Shown: piece by piece, positions 41,454-48,737 of the stretch | How the letters are laid out: each line of letters starts with the position of its first letter | How positions within the stretch are numbered: the stretch's first letter is position 1 | Assembly (NCBI GenBank): GCA_031367385.1 | Contig: JANLPS010000090.1 | Coordinates: 1 to 64,000 of the forward strand | Direction of reading: 5' to 3' | Source of the DNA: Archangium sp. | Lineage (GTDB): Bacteria > Myxococcota > Myxococcia > Myxococcales > Myxococcaceae | DNA length: 64,000 nt | Made by a program: the position numbers and the translations under genes | The notes under the pieces: model-generated | Databases searched by the model: none | What the model was told of the DNA's origin: nothing | What the model saw: only the letters and a program-made list of their open reading frames with translations

Positions 41454-42515
41454 ATGAAGCTCCGTGTGTTTTTGGCTTCGGCCATCGTCTCGATGTGGGC
41501 TGGCTGTCAGTGCGGCCCCGCCTCGCTGTGTGACTCGGTCAAATGCGGTTCGGGTCTGGTGTGCGTGCCTGCCACTGGCAAGTGCGCGGTCGCCGGCGCA
41601 GGGCAGACTGGCTCAGACGGCGGTGCCACGGGTGGGGGCATGGGGGGGGGCACCGGGTCGATGCAGCCGGGTGACGCTGGCCCGCAGTGCCCGGTCACCT
41701 GCGGCGTCGACGCGCCGGTCTGTGACCCCGTTGCCCAGAAGTGCGTCGTGTGCACCGCCACGGCGGGGTGCTCGGCGCCGACGGCGTTCTGCGACACGAA
41801 GGTCGCGCCCAGCGGTGCCTGCTACGGCTGCCGCACCTTTGCCGACTGCGAGGGCGAGCGGGTCGACTGCGATACCAGCACCCACACCTGCTACCGATAC
41901 GACGCCGGGTACGGCGGGGGCAGCGGTGGCAGCCCGGTGTCATTCGACGATGCGGGCCTGACCGCGCACTGCCAAGACGTGACCGGCAGTGCTCCCACGT
42001 GCAAGGGCGAGAGCTGCCCCAAAGGGTACGCCTGCGCCAACGGAGCCTGCGTGCTCAACGGGCGAAACGGCCCGGTGCAAGTGACCCTGCGGTGGGACCG
42101 TGACGAAGACCTCGACCTGTACCTGGTGGCGCCGAAGAAGGTCGGCGGCGGGCCGTGCGAGATTTATTACAGCCAACCGAACGCACCTCCGGTCACCATC
42201 GGTGGGTACACCTTTCCCACCGTCGGGTGCGGGGCGCAGGCGTACCTCGACCGCGACTCGAACCCGGCGTGCAAGATCGATCACGTCAACGTCGAGAACA
42301 TCGTCACGCCGACCGGCGAAGTGGCCCTCTCGGGCAAGTACACCGTGCGCGCCAACTACTACCAAAACTGCAGCGCCACCTCGCCCACGCCGTACGAGGT
42401 CGAGGTGCGGGCCAATGGGCAGACCCGCTACTACTGCGGCAAGTTCAACCCGAACGCGGCCAACGGCGGCAGTGCGGGCGCGGGCGTCGTCATCACCGAG
42501 TTCACGATTCAATAA
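41454..42515 (+). CDS. Cys-rich lipoprotein with a C-terminal YfaP/DUF2135-like domain
   Basis: Lipobox WAGC; VQVTLRW...DLDLY..P, LDRD.N, ENI, G.Y.V..NYY. Confidence 0.78.
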   Translation: MKLRVFLASAIVSMWAGCQCGPASLCDSVKCGSGLVCVPATGKCAVAGAGQTGSDGGATGGGMGGGTGSMQPGDAGPQCPVTCGVDAPVCDPVAQKCVVCTATAGCSAPTAFCDTKVAPSGACYGCRTFADCEGERVDCDTSTHTCYRYDAGYGGGSGGSPVSFDDAGLTAHCQDVTGSAPTCKGESCPKGYACANGACVLNGRNGPVQVTLRWDRDEDLDLYLVAPKKVGGGPCEIYYSQPNAPPVTIGGYTFPTVGCGAQAYLDRDSNPACKIDHVNVENIVTPTGEVALSGKYTVRANYYQNCSATSPTPYEVEVRANGQTRYYCGKFNPNAANGGSAGAGVVITEFTIQ

Positions 42516-42520
42516 CGACG

Positions 42521-43510
42521 ATGGAACGGACCGAACGTCTGCTCGATTTGGTCGCGCTCCTGCTCGACGCGAAGCTGCCGCTGACCTGGTCGGGCATCTA
42601 CGACTCGTTTCCAGACGACTATGGCGGCAGCACCGAGGCCGCTGAGCGCAAGTTCGAGCGCGACAAGGCCGAGCTGCTCGAGCTGGGCATCCCCATTGCG
42701 TTCGTGCAGGCCACCGATGATCACGAGGCGGGGTACGTCATCGACCGCGAGCAGTACTACCTGCCGCAGCCGGGCTTCACCCCTGAAGAGCTGGCCGTGC
42801 TCTACGCGGCGGGCTCGGCGTCGCTCGCGTCGGGCGCTTTCCCCGGCCGGCAAGACCTCGCGCATGCCTTGCGAAAAATTGGCTTCTTCAGCGAGGGGCC
42901 GCTGCCGGTGCCCAAAGTTCGGCTCGAGCTGGGCGCGCTGGCAGAGACCAAAGAATTGCCCGGCCGGCTCGAGCTGCTGTGGGCGGCGATCAACGCGCGC
43001 AAGGCGGTCGAGCTCGACTATTTTTCACCTCACTCACGGCAGCTGACCCACCGGCGCGTCGACCCGTACGGCCTGGCCCTGCGCCGAGGCCTGTGGAGCC
43101 TGGTCGGCTATTGCCACCTGCGCGCCTCGATTCGCACCTTTCATGTGCACCGGGTGCGCGCCCTCGCGGTCAACGCCAAGAGCCCCAAGAGCGTCGACTA
43201 TGAGGTGCCGGCGGGTTTCGCGCTGCATGACTACGTGGCGCACTGGCCGTGGCAGCACCGCTTTCACCCGCCGCTCGAGGTGCAGGTCGCGCTGACCGGC
43301 AGCCTGAACGCGCTCGCACGGCAGCTCTTCCCCGGTGAGCCGAGCGGCGAGGTGGTCACGGTGAAGGCCACCGATGTCGACGGGTTGCTCAAGTACGTCA
43401 TGTCACTCGGGCCCGAGGCGAGCGTGCGCGGGCCGCCAGAGGTGAAGGCCAAGCTCAAGGCGATGGCCAGGCGGGTGCTGGCCGCGCACCAACCCGTGGG
43501 GGCCCCGTGA
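42521..43510 (+). CDS. HTH-WYL transcriptional regulator (PafB-like)
   Basis: ERLLDL, RKFERDKAELLELG, RRVDPYGL...WSLVG...RTF..HRV. Confidence 0.9.
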   Translation: MERTERLLDLVALLLDAKLPLTWSGIYDSFPDDYGGSTEAAERKFERDKAELLELGIPIAFVQATDDHEAGYVIDREQYYLPQPGFTPEELAVLYAAGSASLASGAFPGRQDLAHALRKIGFFSEGPLPVPKVRLELGALAETKELPGRLELLWAAINARKAVELDYFSPHSRQLTHRRVDPYGLALRRGLWSLVGYCHLRASIRTFHVHRVRALAVNAKSPKSVDYEVPAGFALHDYVAHWPWQHRFHPPLEVQVALTGSLNALARQLFPGEPSGEVVTVKATDVDGLLKYVMSLGPEASVRGPPEVKAKLKAMARRVLAAHQPVGAP

Positions 43511-44457
43511 ACCCGACCACCGACAAGGGCCGACCCCTGGTCTACGAGCGGCTGCGCCGGCTGCTGTTTTTGGTGCCCTTCGTCTCGAAGAATCAGGGCC
43601 TCACCGTCGACGAAGTCGCCACCGCTGCGGGCCTGACGACCAGCGCGCTGCTCGAAGACCTCGAGCTGCTGACCTTGGTCGGGCGGCCTCCGTTTCAGCC
43701 CGATGACTTCGTCGACATCTACGTCGAAGACGACCGGGTCTACGTCGATTTAGATCAACGGTTGTCGGCGCCACCGCGGTTGACCGCGGCCGAAGGCGTG
43801 GCCCTCGCTGCGGCGGCTGAGCTGCTGCGACCGGCGGCGGGTGACGCCCTGGCCTCGGCGCTCCAGAAGCTCGAGCGGGTGCTGCCGGCGCAGGCGGTGC
43901 AGCAGTACCGGGCGATGAGCAAGCAGCTCGACGTAACGGTCGAGGGGCCGAAGGGCTTGTCGACGCTGGCGCAGGGCATCGTCGAGCATCGCGAGGTCGA
44001 GTTCGATTACCTCACCGCGAACCGGGCCCTTTCAGAGCGGCGCAGGGTGCAGCCGCACGAGCTCTTCAGCTTTCGCGGCCAGTGGTACCTGAGCGCTCAC
44101 GACACGGCGAGGGGCTCGGCGCGGTTGTTTCGCTTCGACCGGTTGTCGAATGCAGCGGTGACCGAGACCACGTTCACGCCGCCCGAGCATGCGAGCGAGG
44201 CGCGGTTGCCGACCAGCAGCCAGGCCGAGACGCTGGTGCGGGTGCGCTTCGAGGCGAGCGCGGCGCCGTATGTGACTGAGCACTTCGGTGACGAGGCCAA
44301 GCCCGTCGGTGAGGGCCGCGTCGAGGTGCAGGTGCCCGGCGATTCAGAGCGGTGGTTGATGCAGTGGGTGCTCTCGTTCGGCGGCGACGCGGTGGTCATC
44401 GAGCCCGAGTGGGCGCGTACCGCCGTCGCCAAGGCCGCCAGCGGGTGGCTCGGCTGA
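43507..44457 (+). CDS. HTH-WYL transcriptional regulator (PafC-like)
   Basis: RLRRLL.LVP, RLT..E, RRVQP..L....QWYL....RLFRFDR, WCX-like tail; GTGA overlap with the upstream gene. Confidence 0.9.
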   Translation: MNPTTDKGRPLVYERLRRLLFLVPFVSKNQGLTVDEVATAAGLTTSALLEDLELLTLVGRPPFQPDDFVDIYVEDDRVYVDLDQRLSAPPRLTAAEGVALAAAAELLRPAAGDALASALQKLERVLPAQAVQQYRAMSKQLDVTVEGPKGLSTLAQGIVEHREVEFDYLTANRALSERRRVQPHELFSFRGQWYLSAHDTARGSARLFRFDRLSNAAVTETTFTPPEHASEARLPTSSQAETLVRVRFEASAAPYVTEHFGDEAKPVGEGRVEVQVPGDSERWLMQWVLSFGGDAVVIEPEWARTAVAKAASGWLG

Positions 44458-44491: not shown

Positions 44492-45055
44492 ATGGTCATG
44501 ATCACAGTCGACCTGAAGTTGAAGAAGCGGTACGAAATTGCGCTCGCCGAGCTGAAGAAGGCCAGCGGGCTTTCGCGGTATCGAGTCGTGTCTCGAATCA
44601 TCGAGAGCACGCCTCCGTTGTACCTGGCCGGGAGCATTCCGAACGAAGGTGCGTTCTTCAAGCAGGTGCTTCAGGAGAGCCGACAGTCGGTTTACCGATT
44701 GATACGGGTCGCCAAACACGCGAGCGATGCTGATTTCGAGAAATACGGCTTGAGCGTGCTCGATGCGGCCATCACCTATTTCGAGGCAACGAAAGGCCCC
44801 TCGAAGAAAGCGATCGATTTCGACACGCTTCGAATTCTCATTCGGCGCGACGAGGGTGAGGTGTCGAAGCCGTTGAGCGAAGTGAGCGTGGCTGAGGTTC
44901 GCAGCGCGATCTCGGCGCGCAAGGGCACGCTGAAACCTCCAGTGACTCCGCCCCGGGTCAAAAAGCTGCTCGAGCTGATGAAGCGGGCCGGCATCGTGCC
45001 CGAGTCGGTCACGACCTCGAGGGCTGCAACGGTCATTCGAATCGCGAATTCGTGA
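44492..45055 (+). CDS. Hypothetical basic protein, possible HTH DNA-binding protein
   Basis: AGGAG RBS; ESRQSVYRLIRVA resembles a recognition helix; Lys/Arg-rich. Confidence 0.65.
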   Translation: MVMITVDLKLKKRYEIALAELKKASGLSRYRVVSRIIESTPPLYLAGSIPNEGAFFKQVLQESRQSVYRLIRVAKHASDADFEKYGLSVLDAAITYFEATKGPSKKAIDFDTLRILIRRDEGEVSKPLSEVSVAEVRSAISARKGTLKPPVTPPRVKKLLELMKRAGIVPESVTTSRAATVIRIANS

Positions 45056-45062
45056 GCCCGCA

Positions 45063-45123
45063 GTCCCAACGTTGGGACGATTTTGGAACTTTCAGGTTCA
45101 TAGCCTGTCGCATCGTTGGGACA
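45063..45123. repeat. Double-palindrome element, left copy
   Basis: GTCCCAACGTTGGGAC (45063-45078, perfect), then a spacer containing TTTCAGGTTC, then TGTCGCATCGTTGGGACA (45106-45123). Confidence 0.85.
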
Positions 45124-45416: not shown

Positions 45417-46418
45417 TCAGCGCACTCGGCCACCGGGCATGTTGTTTTCAGAATCGTTGGTATTGGGCACAGCGAAATTGGTCATCGAAATAGAGACGCT
45501 CACCGACAGTGCGCGCACGAAGTGCCACCACCCCGCGGGTATGAAGAGCGCCTGACCTTCAGAGAGCGTGGTGGTCAGGAGCGGGATGTCAGCGAAGTAC
45601 GGGAACCGACGCAGGTCGGGAGCTTCGAGGTCGATGAGCGAATAGAAGGCGACGCGGTCTCGGAGCAGCTCGGCCCACGCTGGGTCGATGAGGGTGATGC
45701 GCTTCTGACCGCGCACCTGGCACAAGAGGATGTTCGTCGTATCGTGATGGAGCGGCGTGACCGTGCCCCCCGGCCCGTACCAGAGGTAGACGAACCCATC
45801 GATCTCAAGTGGGTTCATCAGCCCGTGAAAGAACCCGATGTCTTTCACCATCGCGCGCAGCGGCCCGCTCAAGCCGTTGTTGTTGGCCACGAGGTAGGCG
45901 TGATTCGAGAACCGGGTGGCCTCGACCCAGTCGACCCACGCGCCGAAGGTCGTCTCGCCACTGATTTCGTGAACATTCAAATCGTAGAACGCGGTGGTGT
46001 CTCGATTCTGGGCCACCTTCACCGGCACCGCACCGAACCGCTGACGAAGTGCCGATGGCGACCACCGGCGCAGCGCCTGCCAGTCTTTCATCATGGCCGT
46101 GATTCGCACCGGTCGCATGGTGGCGTAGTGCTCTTTGAAGAACGAGCGTCGCCCCAAGCGAGCCACGGAGCGTATTCGTCGGGCGCCAGGCAAGGCATCG
46201 CCAAAGGTACGGCGCAGGCGAGCTTGCCATTCGAGGGTTGCGAGGCGGGCACAGAGTGACTGAATCAGCTCGGCGTTGGGCGAAGTTTCGAGGGCGCGAA
46301 GCTCAGAACGGAGCGCACGGCTCGTCACGAGGGGAAAGGGATTGGCCGCGATCAGCTGCTTCGCCGTGAAACCCCTCGACCAACCCTCGGCGAGCCATGC
46401 CTTCGACAAAGCATCCAT
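45417..46418 (-). CDS. JmjC/cupin_8 2OG-Fe(II) oxygenase (FIH/JMJD5-like protein hydroxylase family)
   Basis: RPV.ITAM..DW.A..RW, LWYGPGGTVTPLHHD (HxD), QVRGQKR, GQALFIPAGWWHFV (distal His). Start set at ATG 46418 because the longer ORF only reads antisense through the repeat gene. Confidence 0.9.
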   Translation of the reverse strand: MDALSKAWLAEGWSRGFTAKQLIAANPFPLVTSRALRSELRALETSPNAELIQSLCARLATLEWQARLRRTFGDALPGARRIRSVARLGRRSFFKEHYATMRPVRITAMMKDWQALRRWSPSALRQRFGAVPVKVAQNRDTTAFYDLNVHEISGETTFGAWVDWVEATRFSNHAYLVANNNGLSGPLRAMVKDIGFFHGLMNPLEIDGFVYLWYGPGGTVTPLHHDTTNILLCQVRGQKRITLIDPAWAELLRDRVAFYSLIDLEAPDLRRFPYFADIPLLTTTLSEGQALFIPAGWWHFVRALSVSVSISMTNFAVPNTNDSENNMPGGRVR

Positions 46419-46496
46419 TTGGCGGTGGAGCTTTGCACTCGGCTCGAAGTCTGGGTACCTTCCGCTCCCCCAAAACCGCCTGTGAGACGCGAACCC

Positions 46497-46691
46497 ATGA
46501 CCACGCTCAAGAAGATTCCGCCGCACCCAGCTCCTCGAAAGACGGGCACCGACGCTCCGAAGATTCCGCCGCACCCGGCGCCTCCGAAGAAGGGCCCTGG
46601 CGCTCCGAAGATTCCGCCGCATCCCGCCCCTCCGAAGAAGGGCCCTGGCGCCCCCAAGATTCCGCCGCACCCGGCTCCTCCGCAGAAGTAG
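46497..46691 (+). CDS. 64-aa tandem-repeat peptide with four KIPPHPAP cores; candidate RiPP precursor
   Basis: The ATG-TAG frame exactly spans four 48-bp units. Differences between the core copies are at third codon positions and synonymous (CAC/CAT, CCA/CCG/CCC, GCT/GCG/GCC). Confidence 0.7.
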   Translation: MTTLKKIPPHPAPRKTGTDAPKIPPHPAPPKKGPGAPKIPPHPAPPKKGPGAPKIPPHPAPPQK

Positions 46692-46710
46692 TACGGGGCC
46701 AGCTGGGCGC

Positions 46711-46779
46711 TGTCGCAACGTTGCGACAAGATTGTCACTTTTCACGTTCTCAATCTGTCCCATCGATGGGACAGATTGA
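46711..46779. repeat. Double-palindrome element, right copy (may also terminate the convergent genes)
   Basis: TGTCGCAACGTTGCGACA (46711-46728, perfect), then a spacer containing TTTCACGTTC, then a 30-bp perfect palindrome TCAATCTGTCCCATCGATGGGACAGATTGA (46750-46779). Confidence 0.88.
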
Positions 46780-46783
46780 AACC

Positions 46784-48616
46784 TCACCGGTAGCCCTGTG
46801 CCTGCAGCGCGAAGAGCCTCGCGTACCGGCCTCCTTGGGCCACCAACGCCTCGTGCGTACCGAGCTCGGTCAGCTTGCCGCCCTCGAGCACCGCGATGCG
46901 GTCTGCCATTCGCACGGTCGAGAACCGGTGCGAGATGATCACCGCCGAACGGTCTTTCGCCAACGTGCGAAAGCGCTCGAACAAGGCCACTTCACTCTCG
47001 GCGTCAATCGATGCGGTCGGCTCATCGAGCACCAGCACGTCGGCCTCGCGCATGAACGCCCGCGCCACCGCCAACTTTTGCCACTGCCCACCCGACAAAT
47101 CGTGCGCGTCTTCGAACCAGGCGCCGAGCACGGTGTCGTACTTCGCGGGCAGCGAGTCGATCATCTCGGCCGCTCCACCGGCTTCGGCAGCGAGCGCAAT
47201 CGCCGCGGGAGAATCGAGCTTGGTCGGCTCACCCAAGCCGATGTTCTCGCCCGCGCTGAACTGGTAGCGCACGAAGTCTTGAAACACCGCGCCGAAGCGA
47301 AGGCGCAGGTCTTTGACGTCGAGGTCGCGAATGTCGATGCCGCCGTAGATGATCGCCCCTTCGGTAGGCTCGTACAGGCGCAGCAGCAGCTTGATCATCG
47401 TCGACTTGCCCGCTCCGTTCTCGCCGACCAGCGCCAGCTTCTCGCCCGGCGCAATCGTCAAGCTGAAGTCACGCAGCGCCCACCCATCGCGCCCGGGGTA
47501 GCGAAACGACACCCCCTGAAACTCGATGGTGTGCTGCCCGCGCGCCAGCTGCTTCGGTGGGTTGACCCGCGACGCCTCGCCCGTCGTCGGCAGCTCGAGA
47601 AACAAGAACAGGTTCGACATGAACAACGCGTCTTCGTACATGCCGGCAATCGACGAGAGCACCGACTCGAAGGCCGCCTGCCCTTGCCGAAACACCGCCA
47701 GGGAAAGGGTCAAATCGCCGACGCTGATCTCGGCCCGCGCGGCGCGACCCGCCACCACCAGGTAGCAGCCGTAGAACGCCGCCGCCGAGAGCATGCCGAG
47801 GCCCGTGCCCAGCCACAGCCGCTTGCGCGCCAACGCCCGGTCTTCGCCCAGAAACGTGGTGTACAGCTTTCGATACCGGCCCAGAATCAGCGGCCCCAGG
47901 TCGAACAGCTTCACCTCTTTGACGTGCGAGTCTCGGGTCAGAATCCACTCGAGGTAGTTGAGCTTTCGGCCCTCGGGCGCCCGCCAGGAGTACAGCTTGA
48001 ACGCCATCGACGAGAGCCGGGTCTCGGCGAAGAACGACGGCACCGCGGCGGCCACCAACACCAGCACCGCCCACCACGACACGTTCCACAGCAGCACGCC
48101 GAAGGTGGCCAGGGTGATGAAGTTCTTCACCACCGTCACGCCCGCCATCGCCAGCGACAACGGCCTGCTCGCCGACTCGCGCCGCGCGTTCTGCATGATG
48201 TCGTAGGTCTTCGAGTCTTCGAAGTGCGAAAGCTCGAGCGTGAGCGATTTTTCTAAGATGCGCTCGGTGATGAGGTTGCCCAGCGAGACGCGGAGCACCT
48301 CGCGAACGAAGCCCTGCCCACGGCCCAGCAGCAATGCGGCGCCTGCCAGGCCCAGCTCCCAGGCGACGTATTGCAGCACCAGGCGCTGCGACTCGGGTGA
48401 CGGCGCCTGCGAGGCGTGCACCACCGCGTCGATGATCAGCTTGCCGACCCAGGCCAGCGTCGCCGGCAGCAACGCTTGCACCATCGTCAGCACCGCCAGA
48501 ATCACCGCGCTGATCCGGTCCGCGTCCCACACCAGGCGGAGGGTTCGCGGCAACTGGTGGAGCAGCTCGCGCGTGCTGACCCGCTCTCGGAGCTTCTTGT
48601 CTTTCGCTGCAACCAT
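46784..48616 (-). CDS. ABC exporter, fused permease/ATP-binding protein
   Basis: Six-TM domain; GENGAGKST, LSGGQWQK, LVLDEPT, ISHR. No C39 peptidase domain. Confidence 0.95.
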   Translation of the reverse strand: MVAAKDKKLRERVSTRELLHQLPRTLRLVWDADRISAVILAVLTMVQALLPATLAWVGKLIIDAVVHASQAPSPESQRLVLQYVAWELGLAGAALLLGRGQGFVREVLRVSLGNLITERILEKSLTLELSHFEDSKTYDIMQNARRESASRPLSLAMAGVTVVKNFITLATFGVLLWNVSWWAVLVLVAAAVPSFFAETRLSSMAFKLYSWRAPEGRKLNYLEWILTRDSHVKEVKLFDLGPLILGRYRKLYTTFLGEDRALARKRLWLGTGLGMLSAAAFYGCYLVVAGRAARAEISVGDLTLSLAVFRQGQAAFESVLSSIAGMYEDALFMSNLFLFLELPTTGEASRVNPPKQLARGQHTIEFQGVSFRYPGRDGWALRDFSLTIAPGEKLALVGENGAGKSTMIKLLLRLYEPTEGAIIYGGIDIRDLDVKDLRLRFGAVFQDFVRYQFSAGENIGLGEPTKLDSPAAIALAAEAGGAAEMIDSLPAKYDTVLGAWFEDAHDLSGGQWQKLAVARAFMREADVLVLDEPTASIDAESEVALFERFRTLAKDRSAVIISHRFSTVRMADRIAVLEGGKLTELGTHEALVAQGGRYARLFALQAQGYR

Positions 48617-48653
48617 CGCCCGTCGGCCTGCCATTGGGGGCGTTGCTTAACCG

Positions 48654-48737
48654 TGGTTCGACAGGCTCACCATGAGAGGTTCGCTTTTGAGGGTGGGTGA
48701 GGTCTTCACCATGGTTCGACAGGCTCACCATGAGAGG
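48654..48737 (+). repeat. Two identical 26-bp REP-like direct repeats
   Basis: TGGTTCGACAGGCTCACCATGAGAGG at 48654-48679 and 48712-48737. Confidence 0.9.

Follow-up and report, generated by a model that had tools for sequence, protein, structure and literature searches.

The first 64,000 nucleotides (nt) of contig JANLPS010000090.1 (assembly GCA_031367385.1) from Archangium sp., referred to here as the window, contain a gene for a JmjC-type oxygenase that lies head-to-head with a short open reading frame (ORF) for a proline-rich repeat peptide. This arrangement raises the question of whether the ORF is a gene at all and, if so, whether its product is the substrate of the enzyme and which of its residues would be modified. 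Comparison with related loci indicates that the peptide belongs to a real and selected gene family, and that it is probably the substrate. With moderate confidence, the pair is read as a two-gene hydroxylation cassette in which proline is the target, the product remains uncut, and the neighbouring ATP-binding cassette (ABC) exporter takes no part. The features of the pair are as follows.

45417–46418, minus strand: JmjC (Cupin_8) Fe(II)/2-oxoglutarate oxygenase of 333 amino acids (aa), the predicted modifying enzyme (from Pfam, fold and tree)
46197–46415, minus strand: N-terminal four-helix domain of the enzyme (aa 2–74; from a model; also found on prolyl 4-hydroxylase-like proteins)
45522–45749, minus strand: iron-binding triad H224, D226 and H299, with N229 and K239 in between (from sequence)
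46419–46496, no strand: 78-bp divergent intergenic region between the ATGs of the peptide and JmjC genes
46497–46691, plus strand: 64-aa Pro/Lys-rich tandem-repeat peptide with four KIPPHPAP cores, the predicted substrate
46512–46679, plus strand: repeat array of the peptide gene, with cores at 46512, 46560, 46608 and 46656 (period 48 nt)

The repeat peptide and its pairing with the JmjC enzyme

The enzyme retains the intact triad previously reported for it (H224-x-D226...H299), together with the 2-oxoglutarate-binding lysine K239, and matches Cupin_8 above cut-off (E 1.2e-35). Its predicted structure (predicted local distance difference test, pLDDT, 89.9) has the fold of JMJD5, which is the best match both by profile (E 2.5e-42) and by Foldseek (E 4e-22), at 28–30% identity; JMJD7, TYW5 and FIH are the other nearest folds, and the nearest named relatives come from Myxococcota genomes. 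The four human proteins are Cupin_8 protein hydroxylases that differ in their substrates (Arg, Lys, wybutosine and Asn/Asp/His, respectively), and the N-terminal domain of the window enzyme lies outside the region aligned with them. [quoted passage not shown] A fold search with the domain returned only winged-helix-like matches (best Z 6.6), and Pfam returned only scattered weak ones; it might serve as a substrate-binding or assembly module. No NCBIfam model matches the JmjC protein or the partner peptides scanned, save for below-cut-off low-complexity matches of two actinobacterial partners. Co-folding of the enzyme, iron and the peptide (score 0.01, mark 0.32) gave no verdict and is not used as evidence.

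The peptide ORF translates exactly as described in the first-pass annotation, into 64 aa with four KIPPHPAP cores, the first beginning at residue 6, and the distance of 78 bp between the two ATGs was likewise confirmed. The peptide comprises 24 Pro, 11 Lys, 4 His and 4 Thr, with neither Ser nor Cys, and has no Pfam match; a genome-wide ORF search of the 7.97-Mb genome revealed no second ORF with two or more KIPPHPAP-type cores. Selection on the core had been proposed because its codons differ only synonymously while the linkers vary. Indeed, the four 24-nt cores differ at three sites, all of them third positions, and require a minimum of five changes, all synonymous, a pattern expected by chance at approx. 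0.001, although the core was picked for its invariance. Two caveats apply within the window: linker 1 differs, whereas linkers 2 and 3 are identical, and the antisense frame, which shares the third positions, is equally invariant, so that the choice of strand had to come from relatives.

A profile derived from an alignment of 39 homologues was run on genome and metagenome collections, where it found 79 and 80 loci, respectively. When the neighbourhoods of these homologues were checked, a divergent Pro-rich repeat ORF was present at 17 of the 18 loci that scored at least 277 bits (46–69% identity). After removal of two duplicates, 15 of 16 distinct loci show the pairing, and the single locus without a repeat ORF has just 247 nt upstream. 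The 15 paired genes, together with those of L234, L236 and L240, make up the set of 18 precursors considered here. Most of the divergent repeat ORFs begin with MPR(I/V/T) and are built on PL(K/T/A)S, after which I(A/P)P(H/Q)P often comes. Serine in the motif is encoded 199 times in the 18 precursors, by TCN in 128 cases and by AGY in 71. Across 55 nine-residue repeats, the sense residues L, K, S, I, P and P are invariant, whereas the antisense frame varies (I/M, D/L and F/L) and contains both Trp and a stop; a crude ratio of nonsynonymous to synonymous differences (pN/pS) is 0.08–0.27 in six precursor pairs. Thus, the mixture of Ser codons, the invariant sense columns, the variable antisense frame and the low pN/pS identify the sense reading as the gene. 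The opposite strand, which reads as a Gly/Cys peptide of the GGCGAI type, was considered as the true gene, since its Cys and Ser would suit a lanthipeptide, but the codon data of the family rule it out. Pairing and purifying selection therefore bear out the view that the peptide belongs to a genuine gene family partnered with this JmjC clade.

The peptide had also been called leaderless, and its relatives agree: the first PLxS lies at residue 7–8 in 16 of 18, and the longest N-terminal hydrophobic run in the precursors is 1–4 residues, with no signal-like stretch. Over 47 aa, the window peptide and the precursor of L032 are 57% identical (E 0.003, a low-complexity match), and the window enzyme is nested within the His-type PLKS clade with a tree support of 0.998. 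To judge from its sequence, the window peptide is a Ser-free derivative of the PL(K/T)S-I(A/P)P(H/Q)P precursor family. In broader collections, a homology search with the L035 precursor yielded 806 candidates, all of them weaker than E 0.001; no match in the ESM Atlas reached 0.9; and none of the five peptide sequences queried occurs in a collection of 15 billion proteins.

The larger cluster in relatives and its place among known systems

In relatives, the pair is part of a larger modification cluster. On the precursor strand, genes for an APH kinase and a HopA1-domain lyase come next at all 13 loci with enough flank, accompanied by a gene for a protein that we take to resemble aldo-keto reductases (AKR) at 12 of them and by a second, JmjC_2-type oxygenase gene at 11; the profiles behind these counts drew on a subset of the 13 loci, and the Pfam scan behind the APH and HopA1 assignments covered 25 selected genes. 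All seven lyases checked keep the pattern K/R...K...R...Y with the spacing of CaoY R187/K219/R229/Y236. The cluster kinase scores 57 bits, compared with an NCBIfam LxmK cut-off of 315. One of three AKR-like proteins matches Pfam Aldo_ket_red below cut-off (E 9e-4), the other two not at all, and there is no PDB match. Complete PLKS-type precursors are 111–204 aa long and consist entirely of repeats. ORF clustering and gene maps revealed no conserved decarboxylase, cyclase, YcaO/TfuA, protease or exporter within 6 kb, and a C45-type peptidase occurs at one family locus only. In the full cluster, dehydroalanine would be formed by the kinase and lyase from the serines of the PLxS repeats and may be reduced by the AKR-like protein, and the two JmjC enzymes would add hydroxyls. 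This would yield a basic polypeptide with 8–16 repeats that carries dehydroalanine or reduced residues as well as hydroxyls, and perhaps Lys/His cross-links.

The composition of the cluster varies among genomes. G151 and G012 have the precursor, kinase and lyase with no Cupin_8 gene at the syntenic place (the G012 locus spans two contigs). The window genome (G000) shows the reverse, i.e., a Cupin_8 gene and a Ser-free peptide, with the other four genes missing from the 68.6-kb contig (C47) and no cluster-clade kinase anywhere in the genome. In the family, 63 of 208 genomes have a kinase that matches at E 1e-30 or better, but only 13 have one at 1e-120. The window locus is best seen as a pared-down satellite of a RiPP-like system that has apparently not been described, and its lineage would retain the hydroxylation module only.

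Several further loci resemble parts of this cluster. In the window genome, C287:6173-8000 (L226) carries an APH kinase gene and a HopA1-like gene of a clade present in approx. 60 family genomes, with no nearby precursor seen. This pair was considered as displaced cluster genes and rejected, given that it forms a separate clade, the kinase is 29–35% identical to those of the cluster and the lyase lacks the catalytic pattern. Also in the window genome, C219:1-1449 (L326) encodes a long repeat of the GAKEAAKE type fused ahead of a HopA1-domain protein (the 2.1-kb contig has no kinase gene), and C480:6642-6782 (minus strand) is a 46-aa ORF that resembles a double-glycine leader peptide directly upstream of a gene for an AKR-like protein of the cluster family. 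Elsewhere, a PTPTATRP repeat precursor precedes kinase and lyase genes at L239 7454-9939 (G005 C51), and an RPEM/PPTSI repeat precursor precedes a kinase gene at L236 12-3257 (G020 C582), where the lyase and AKR are fused. A loose PLxS pattern run on five genomes gave mostly chance matches and no precursor for G156.

Passages in PMC9486802 and PMC8153245 describe the combination of APH and HopA1 as the LanK/LanY dehydratase of class V lanthipeptides and thioamitides. The clusters of the relatives share with these systems (for example, cacaoidin, lexapeptide and pristinin) an APH kinase and a HopA1-domain lyase right after the precursor. They differ in that the precursor is leaderless, Cys-free and composed only of repeats, and the LanK/LanY pair is absent from the window locus. 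A criterion in PMC9486802 puts class V precursors below 110 aa, with a C-terminal core that contains Cys and Ser/Thr; Cys is found neither in the window peptide nor in any of the 18 relatives. No PLKSI or PLTSA peptide appears in two supplementary tables of the HopA1 survey in PMC8153245, the supplementary figures of which may bear on novelty.

JmjC enzymes that act on RiPP precursors are described in portions of PMC12707348 and PMC12257519, for BipG/PbsQ, which hydroxylate ornithine, and of PMC11575548, for CzlI (curacozole), which hydroxylates Phe. Like BipG/BpmG/PbsQ of biphenomycin and CzlI, the window enzyme is a JmjC Fe/2-oxoglutarate enzyme encoded beside a precursor, there the one that is hydroxylated. 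Those enzymes tailor short leader-core precursors, whereas the window enzyme carries an additional helical domain at its N-terminus, is paired with a Pro-rich peptide of tandem repeats and is the sole enzyme at its locus. RRE-fused JmjC proteins, mentioned in a passage of PMC12710340, have a different architecture. The window pair works like a RiPP tailoring pair, with a conserved precursor gene linked to modifying enzymes, and falls outside both the class V lanthipeptides and the dibasic multi-core peptides. The suggestion that the class had not been described agrees with the literature searched, in which no account of the system was found (coverage of subscription papers was limited).

The modified residue and competing explanations

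The conserved head-to-head pairing inside a larger modification cluster makes it likely that the enzyme hydroxylates the peptide. Using Fe(II), O2 and 2-oxoglutarate, it would bind the repeat peptide and hydroxylate each repeat, most likely at a proline within the recurring I-x-P-H-P motif. This would give a basic polypeptide rich in hydroxyproline that likely remains uncut and for which the adjacent ABC transporter is likely not the exporter. As no conserved protease or exporter accompanies the genes, the product is more plausibly a modified polypeptide with a structural or binding role than a small molecule that is secreted, although a protease or exporter encoded elsewhere might act in trans. 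Proline as the target, and any physiological role, are the weakest parts of this proposal; if the peptide is indeed the substrate, proline is the probable site.

The argument for proline comes from the wider enzyme family, represented by dereplicated loci of at least 125 bits whose enzymes have the N-terminal domain (loci with less than 900 nt upstream were left out). At 27 of these 38 loci (8 of 10 close and 19 of 28 intermediate ones, the more distant homologues being 31–48% identical), the 1.2 kb upstream include a Pro-rich ORF, compared with 14 of 141 control windows drawn from these loci and 4 of 49 loci of distant JmjC proteins. Partners in other Myxococcota have lipoprotein-like PMPPP repeats, and at L048 and L050 a (PT)n tail is carried by a pilin-like protein. 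Two large genera of the family to which the window belongs, presumably Myxococcus and Corallococcus, have the enzymes in every genome searched (32/32 and 21/21), and a sample of the phylum has them in 82 of 401 genomes. A Pro-rich peptide of 47–85 aa, mostly with IVPNP, is found at 20 of 24 loci of these genera, as counted with a pattern built on motifs already seen and with redundant loci kept. The element common to the partners is (I/V/L)-x-P-X-P or P-X-P, where X differs between lineages (H, Q, N, M or T), whereas Y175, T219, H224, D226, K239, W298 and H299 are nearly constant across the enzyme family. Proline, as the sole residue common to all partner repeats, is therefore the most economical target.

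Two further groups of loci with Pro-rich peptides should be noted. At the actinobacterial loci L058, L060, L064, L119, L128 and L130, precursors with a conserved leader, (PT)n or (PTPH)n repeats and a Cys/Gly-rich tail lie upstream of the JmjC gene and divergent from a gene for a multinuclear non-haem iron-dependent oxidative enzyme (MNIO; BufB-like, below cut-off, scanned in L058 and L130). At L314-L320 and L322-L325 (in G178, G118, G190, G123, G132, G076 and G179), short Pro-rich peptides are encoded between or beside the JmjC genes, of which there are one to three, often next to genes for a CHAT-domain protein and an extracytoplasmic function (ECF) sigma/anti-sigma pair.

Members of the family are also fused to a prolyl 4-hydroxylase (P4H)-like domain (L046, 4720-6468; L048, 5755-7524; P0154; P0176). 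A profile of the N-terminal domain retrieved 778 cluster representatives; 27 long or multi-hit proteins picked among the 150 matches listed include two JmjC-P4H fusions, four sulfotransferase fusions and one P4H-like protein. In P0171, the domain is joined to a P4H-like protein without JmjC that matches a solved P4H at E 2e-52. The set of proteins with P4H-like or sulfotransferase fusions comprises P0154, P0176, P0171, P0189, P0221, P0230 and P0255. These fusions suggest that hydroxylation is followed by sulfation in some hosts.

Plant and algal extensins are built of tandem Pro-rich repeats containing Lys, His and Ser, many sites of which are modified by collagen-type prolyl 4-hydroxylases. 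The systems considered here resemble them in the predicted modification of many sites along one repeat polypeptide and in the P4H-like domains fused to this JmjC family; they differ in being bacterial, in the JmjC fold of the core enzyme, in the lack of a signal peptide in PLKS-type partners and in the dehydration of Ser that would take the place of its glycosylation. A tentative and broader reading is that JmjC enzymes with the N-terminal helical domain are widespread bacterial protein prolyl hydroxylases that make extensin-like polypeptides and have been plugged into different pathways. In Myxococcaceae, these would be dehydro-polypeptides with LanK/LanY that have neither a leader nor Cys, and in actinobacteria MNIO systems; other Myxococcota would have lipoprotein-like partners, the fused P4H would go with pilin-like proteins, and the two large myxobacterial genera would have short IVPNP peptides. 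The window would be the minimal form, with one enzyme and one substrate.

A number of observations weigh against proline hydroxylation by a conserved and functional pair. We know of no JmjC-fold protein prolyl hydroxylase. The fusion with P4H could equally mean that P4H takes Pro and JmjC another residue. The residues listed in a part of PMC11575548 are Lys, His, Asn and Asp, plus Phe. Eleven of the 38 family loci have no Pro-rich ORF at the threshold used, and the close JmjC clade is limited to one family (15 of 208 genomes), which means that its loci are not independent. The loss of Ser fits that of the kinase and lyase genes well, but the combination is seen in a single genome (98% complete, in 562 contigs). 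The window peptide has a weak ribosome-binding site, with no clear Shine-Dalgarno sequence ahead of its ATG (most relatives have a purine-rich one), and is absent from the gene calls in the protein collection; thus, the window copy may be decaying. Finally, enzyme positions 179, 214 and 230 co-vary with the switch from His to Gln in the peptides, and the enzyme therefore probably reads the middle residue of the motif.

This co-variation favours the main rival explanation, which is unlikely on balance, namely beta-hydroxylation of the residue in the middle of P-x-P (His in the window, Gln or Asn in relatives) in the manner of FIH. FIH, one of the nearest folds along with JMJD5, JMJD7 and TYW5, acts on Asn, Asp and His; Asn takes this place in the IVPNP peptides; and RiPP His and Asp beta-hydroxylases exist (passages in PMC11575548). 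His had been among the targets first proposed but fails as a universal one, since one subclade has Gln in its place and the partners of more distant enzymes have Asn, Met or Thr. Against this rival, Met and Thr take the middle place in other partners, some partner repeats consist almost entirely of P, T, A and K or of P, M, D, A and G, and the catalytic core is nearly constant across all partner types.

The next two explanations depend on the surroundings of the pair, which include the following features.

45063–45122, no strand: left copy of a 60-bp double-palindrome repeat, a possible cassette boundary (from a repeat search)
46712–46772, no strand: right copy of the 60-bp repeat, between the peptide and ABC genes (from a repeat search)
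46784–48616 (to 48634), minus strand: ABC exporter, a chance neighbour and not part of the system (from orthologue and synteny tests)

The dispersed flanking repeats and a lower GC content at third codon positions (GC3; 0.77 for the JmjC gene vs. 0.88 for its ABC and pafC-like neighbours) suggest that the locus is an acquired cassette. The 60-bp double palindrome, similar to repetitive extragenic palindromic (REP) elements, is not specific to the system, as it has 16 copies in the window genome, 14 of them besides the flanking pair. Synteny with the congener G001 covers the exporter and the genes upstream of it, beyond which unrelated repeat DNA occupies the cassette site. Paired copies enclose accessory genes at two more sites, C57:18093-19872, with an orphan gene of 348 aa, and C92:42088-43335, with a two-gene module that we take to be BrnT/BrnA-like. 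Contigs assembled from four DNA runs provided neither an informative variant nor an empty site for the cassette, and both a scan of the divergent region for sigma-70-like promoters and an Rfam scan were empty.

Within this context, the window copy might be a decaying relic or a displaced cluster fragment, whose peptide is no longer made or modified or whose JmjC enzyme acts on other Pro-rich proteins. Such decay would account for the loss of Ser and of four partner genes, the short length (64 aa, the shortest member, vs. 111–204 aa for complete PLKS members), the weak ribosome-binding site and low GC3, and the position between repeats that also flank accessory genes elsewhere, at a site occupied by unrelated DNA in G001. 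However, both ORFs are intact, the core changes are all synonymous, every catalytic residue is kept, and a 96%-identical enzyme is present in another strain; this explanation is considered improbable.

The first-pass annotation had also envisaged a multi-core RiPP whose cleavage at dibasic sites would release short Pro-rich units with an antimicrobial or metal-binding function; in this model, the ABC transporter next to the pair would export them. The window peptide is indeed basic and Pro-rich, four dibasic pairs lie between its cores, and the exporter gene converges on the peptide gene as reported. However, KK, RK, KR or RR occurs in none of the 18 relatives, neither the conserved dibasic sites nor the signal peptide of dikaritin- and apidaecin-type precursors is found there, and no protease or exporter is conserved among the neighbours. 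The exporter has no orthologue at 21 family loci, three of which hold only an unrelated ATPase domain (30% identity at most), whereas orthologues of 61–83% identity are present in four of five tested genomes, all without this JmjC clade. The earlier caution that the exporter may be unrelated is thus borne out, and the dibasic export model is very improbable. Least credible of all is a JMJD7/JMJD4-like reaction at the Lys directly before I-x-P, a residue that is invariant in 55 of 55 LKSI-type repeats, present in all four window cores and reminiscent of the ornithine hydroxylated by BipG/PbsQ, but that is exchanged for T, A or R in other PLxS repeats, while Met-type partners contain only 0–4 Lys in total.

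Implications and neighbouring genes

With proline hydroxylation retained as the preferred reading, the window offers a two-component and directly testable entry to a family of peptide-modifying JmjC enzymes whose partners are mostly missed by gene callers. If the target is indeed Pro, the JmjC fold would gain a new reaction, and hydroxyproline-rich polymers of bacterial origin would come within reach. With the parent cluster, the chemistry of LanK/LanY would be extended to substrates of 8–16 repeats that lack both a leader and Cys, and such substrates bear on how these dehydratases, whose substrate recognition is called poorly understood in a passage of PMC9486802, recognize their targets. Since related pairs occur in all 32 and 21 genomes of the two genera, their biology should be testable in cultured myxobacteria.

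Other elements of the window adjoin the locus. Tandem genes for WYL-type regulators lie to the left of the cassette (42500-44457), with PafC-like domains confirmed for 43507-44457. They are followed by an ORF of 187 aa (44492-45055, plus strand; GC3 0.75) that has no Pfam match and eight paralogues in the genome at 34–48% identity. On the other side, upstream of the ABC gene, 48646-48737 contains two direct repeats of 34 nt that are 94% identical and 58 nt apart.

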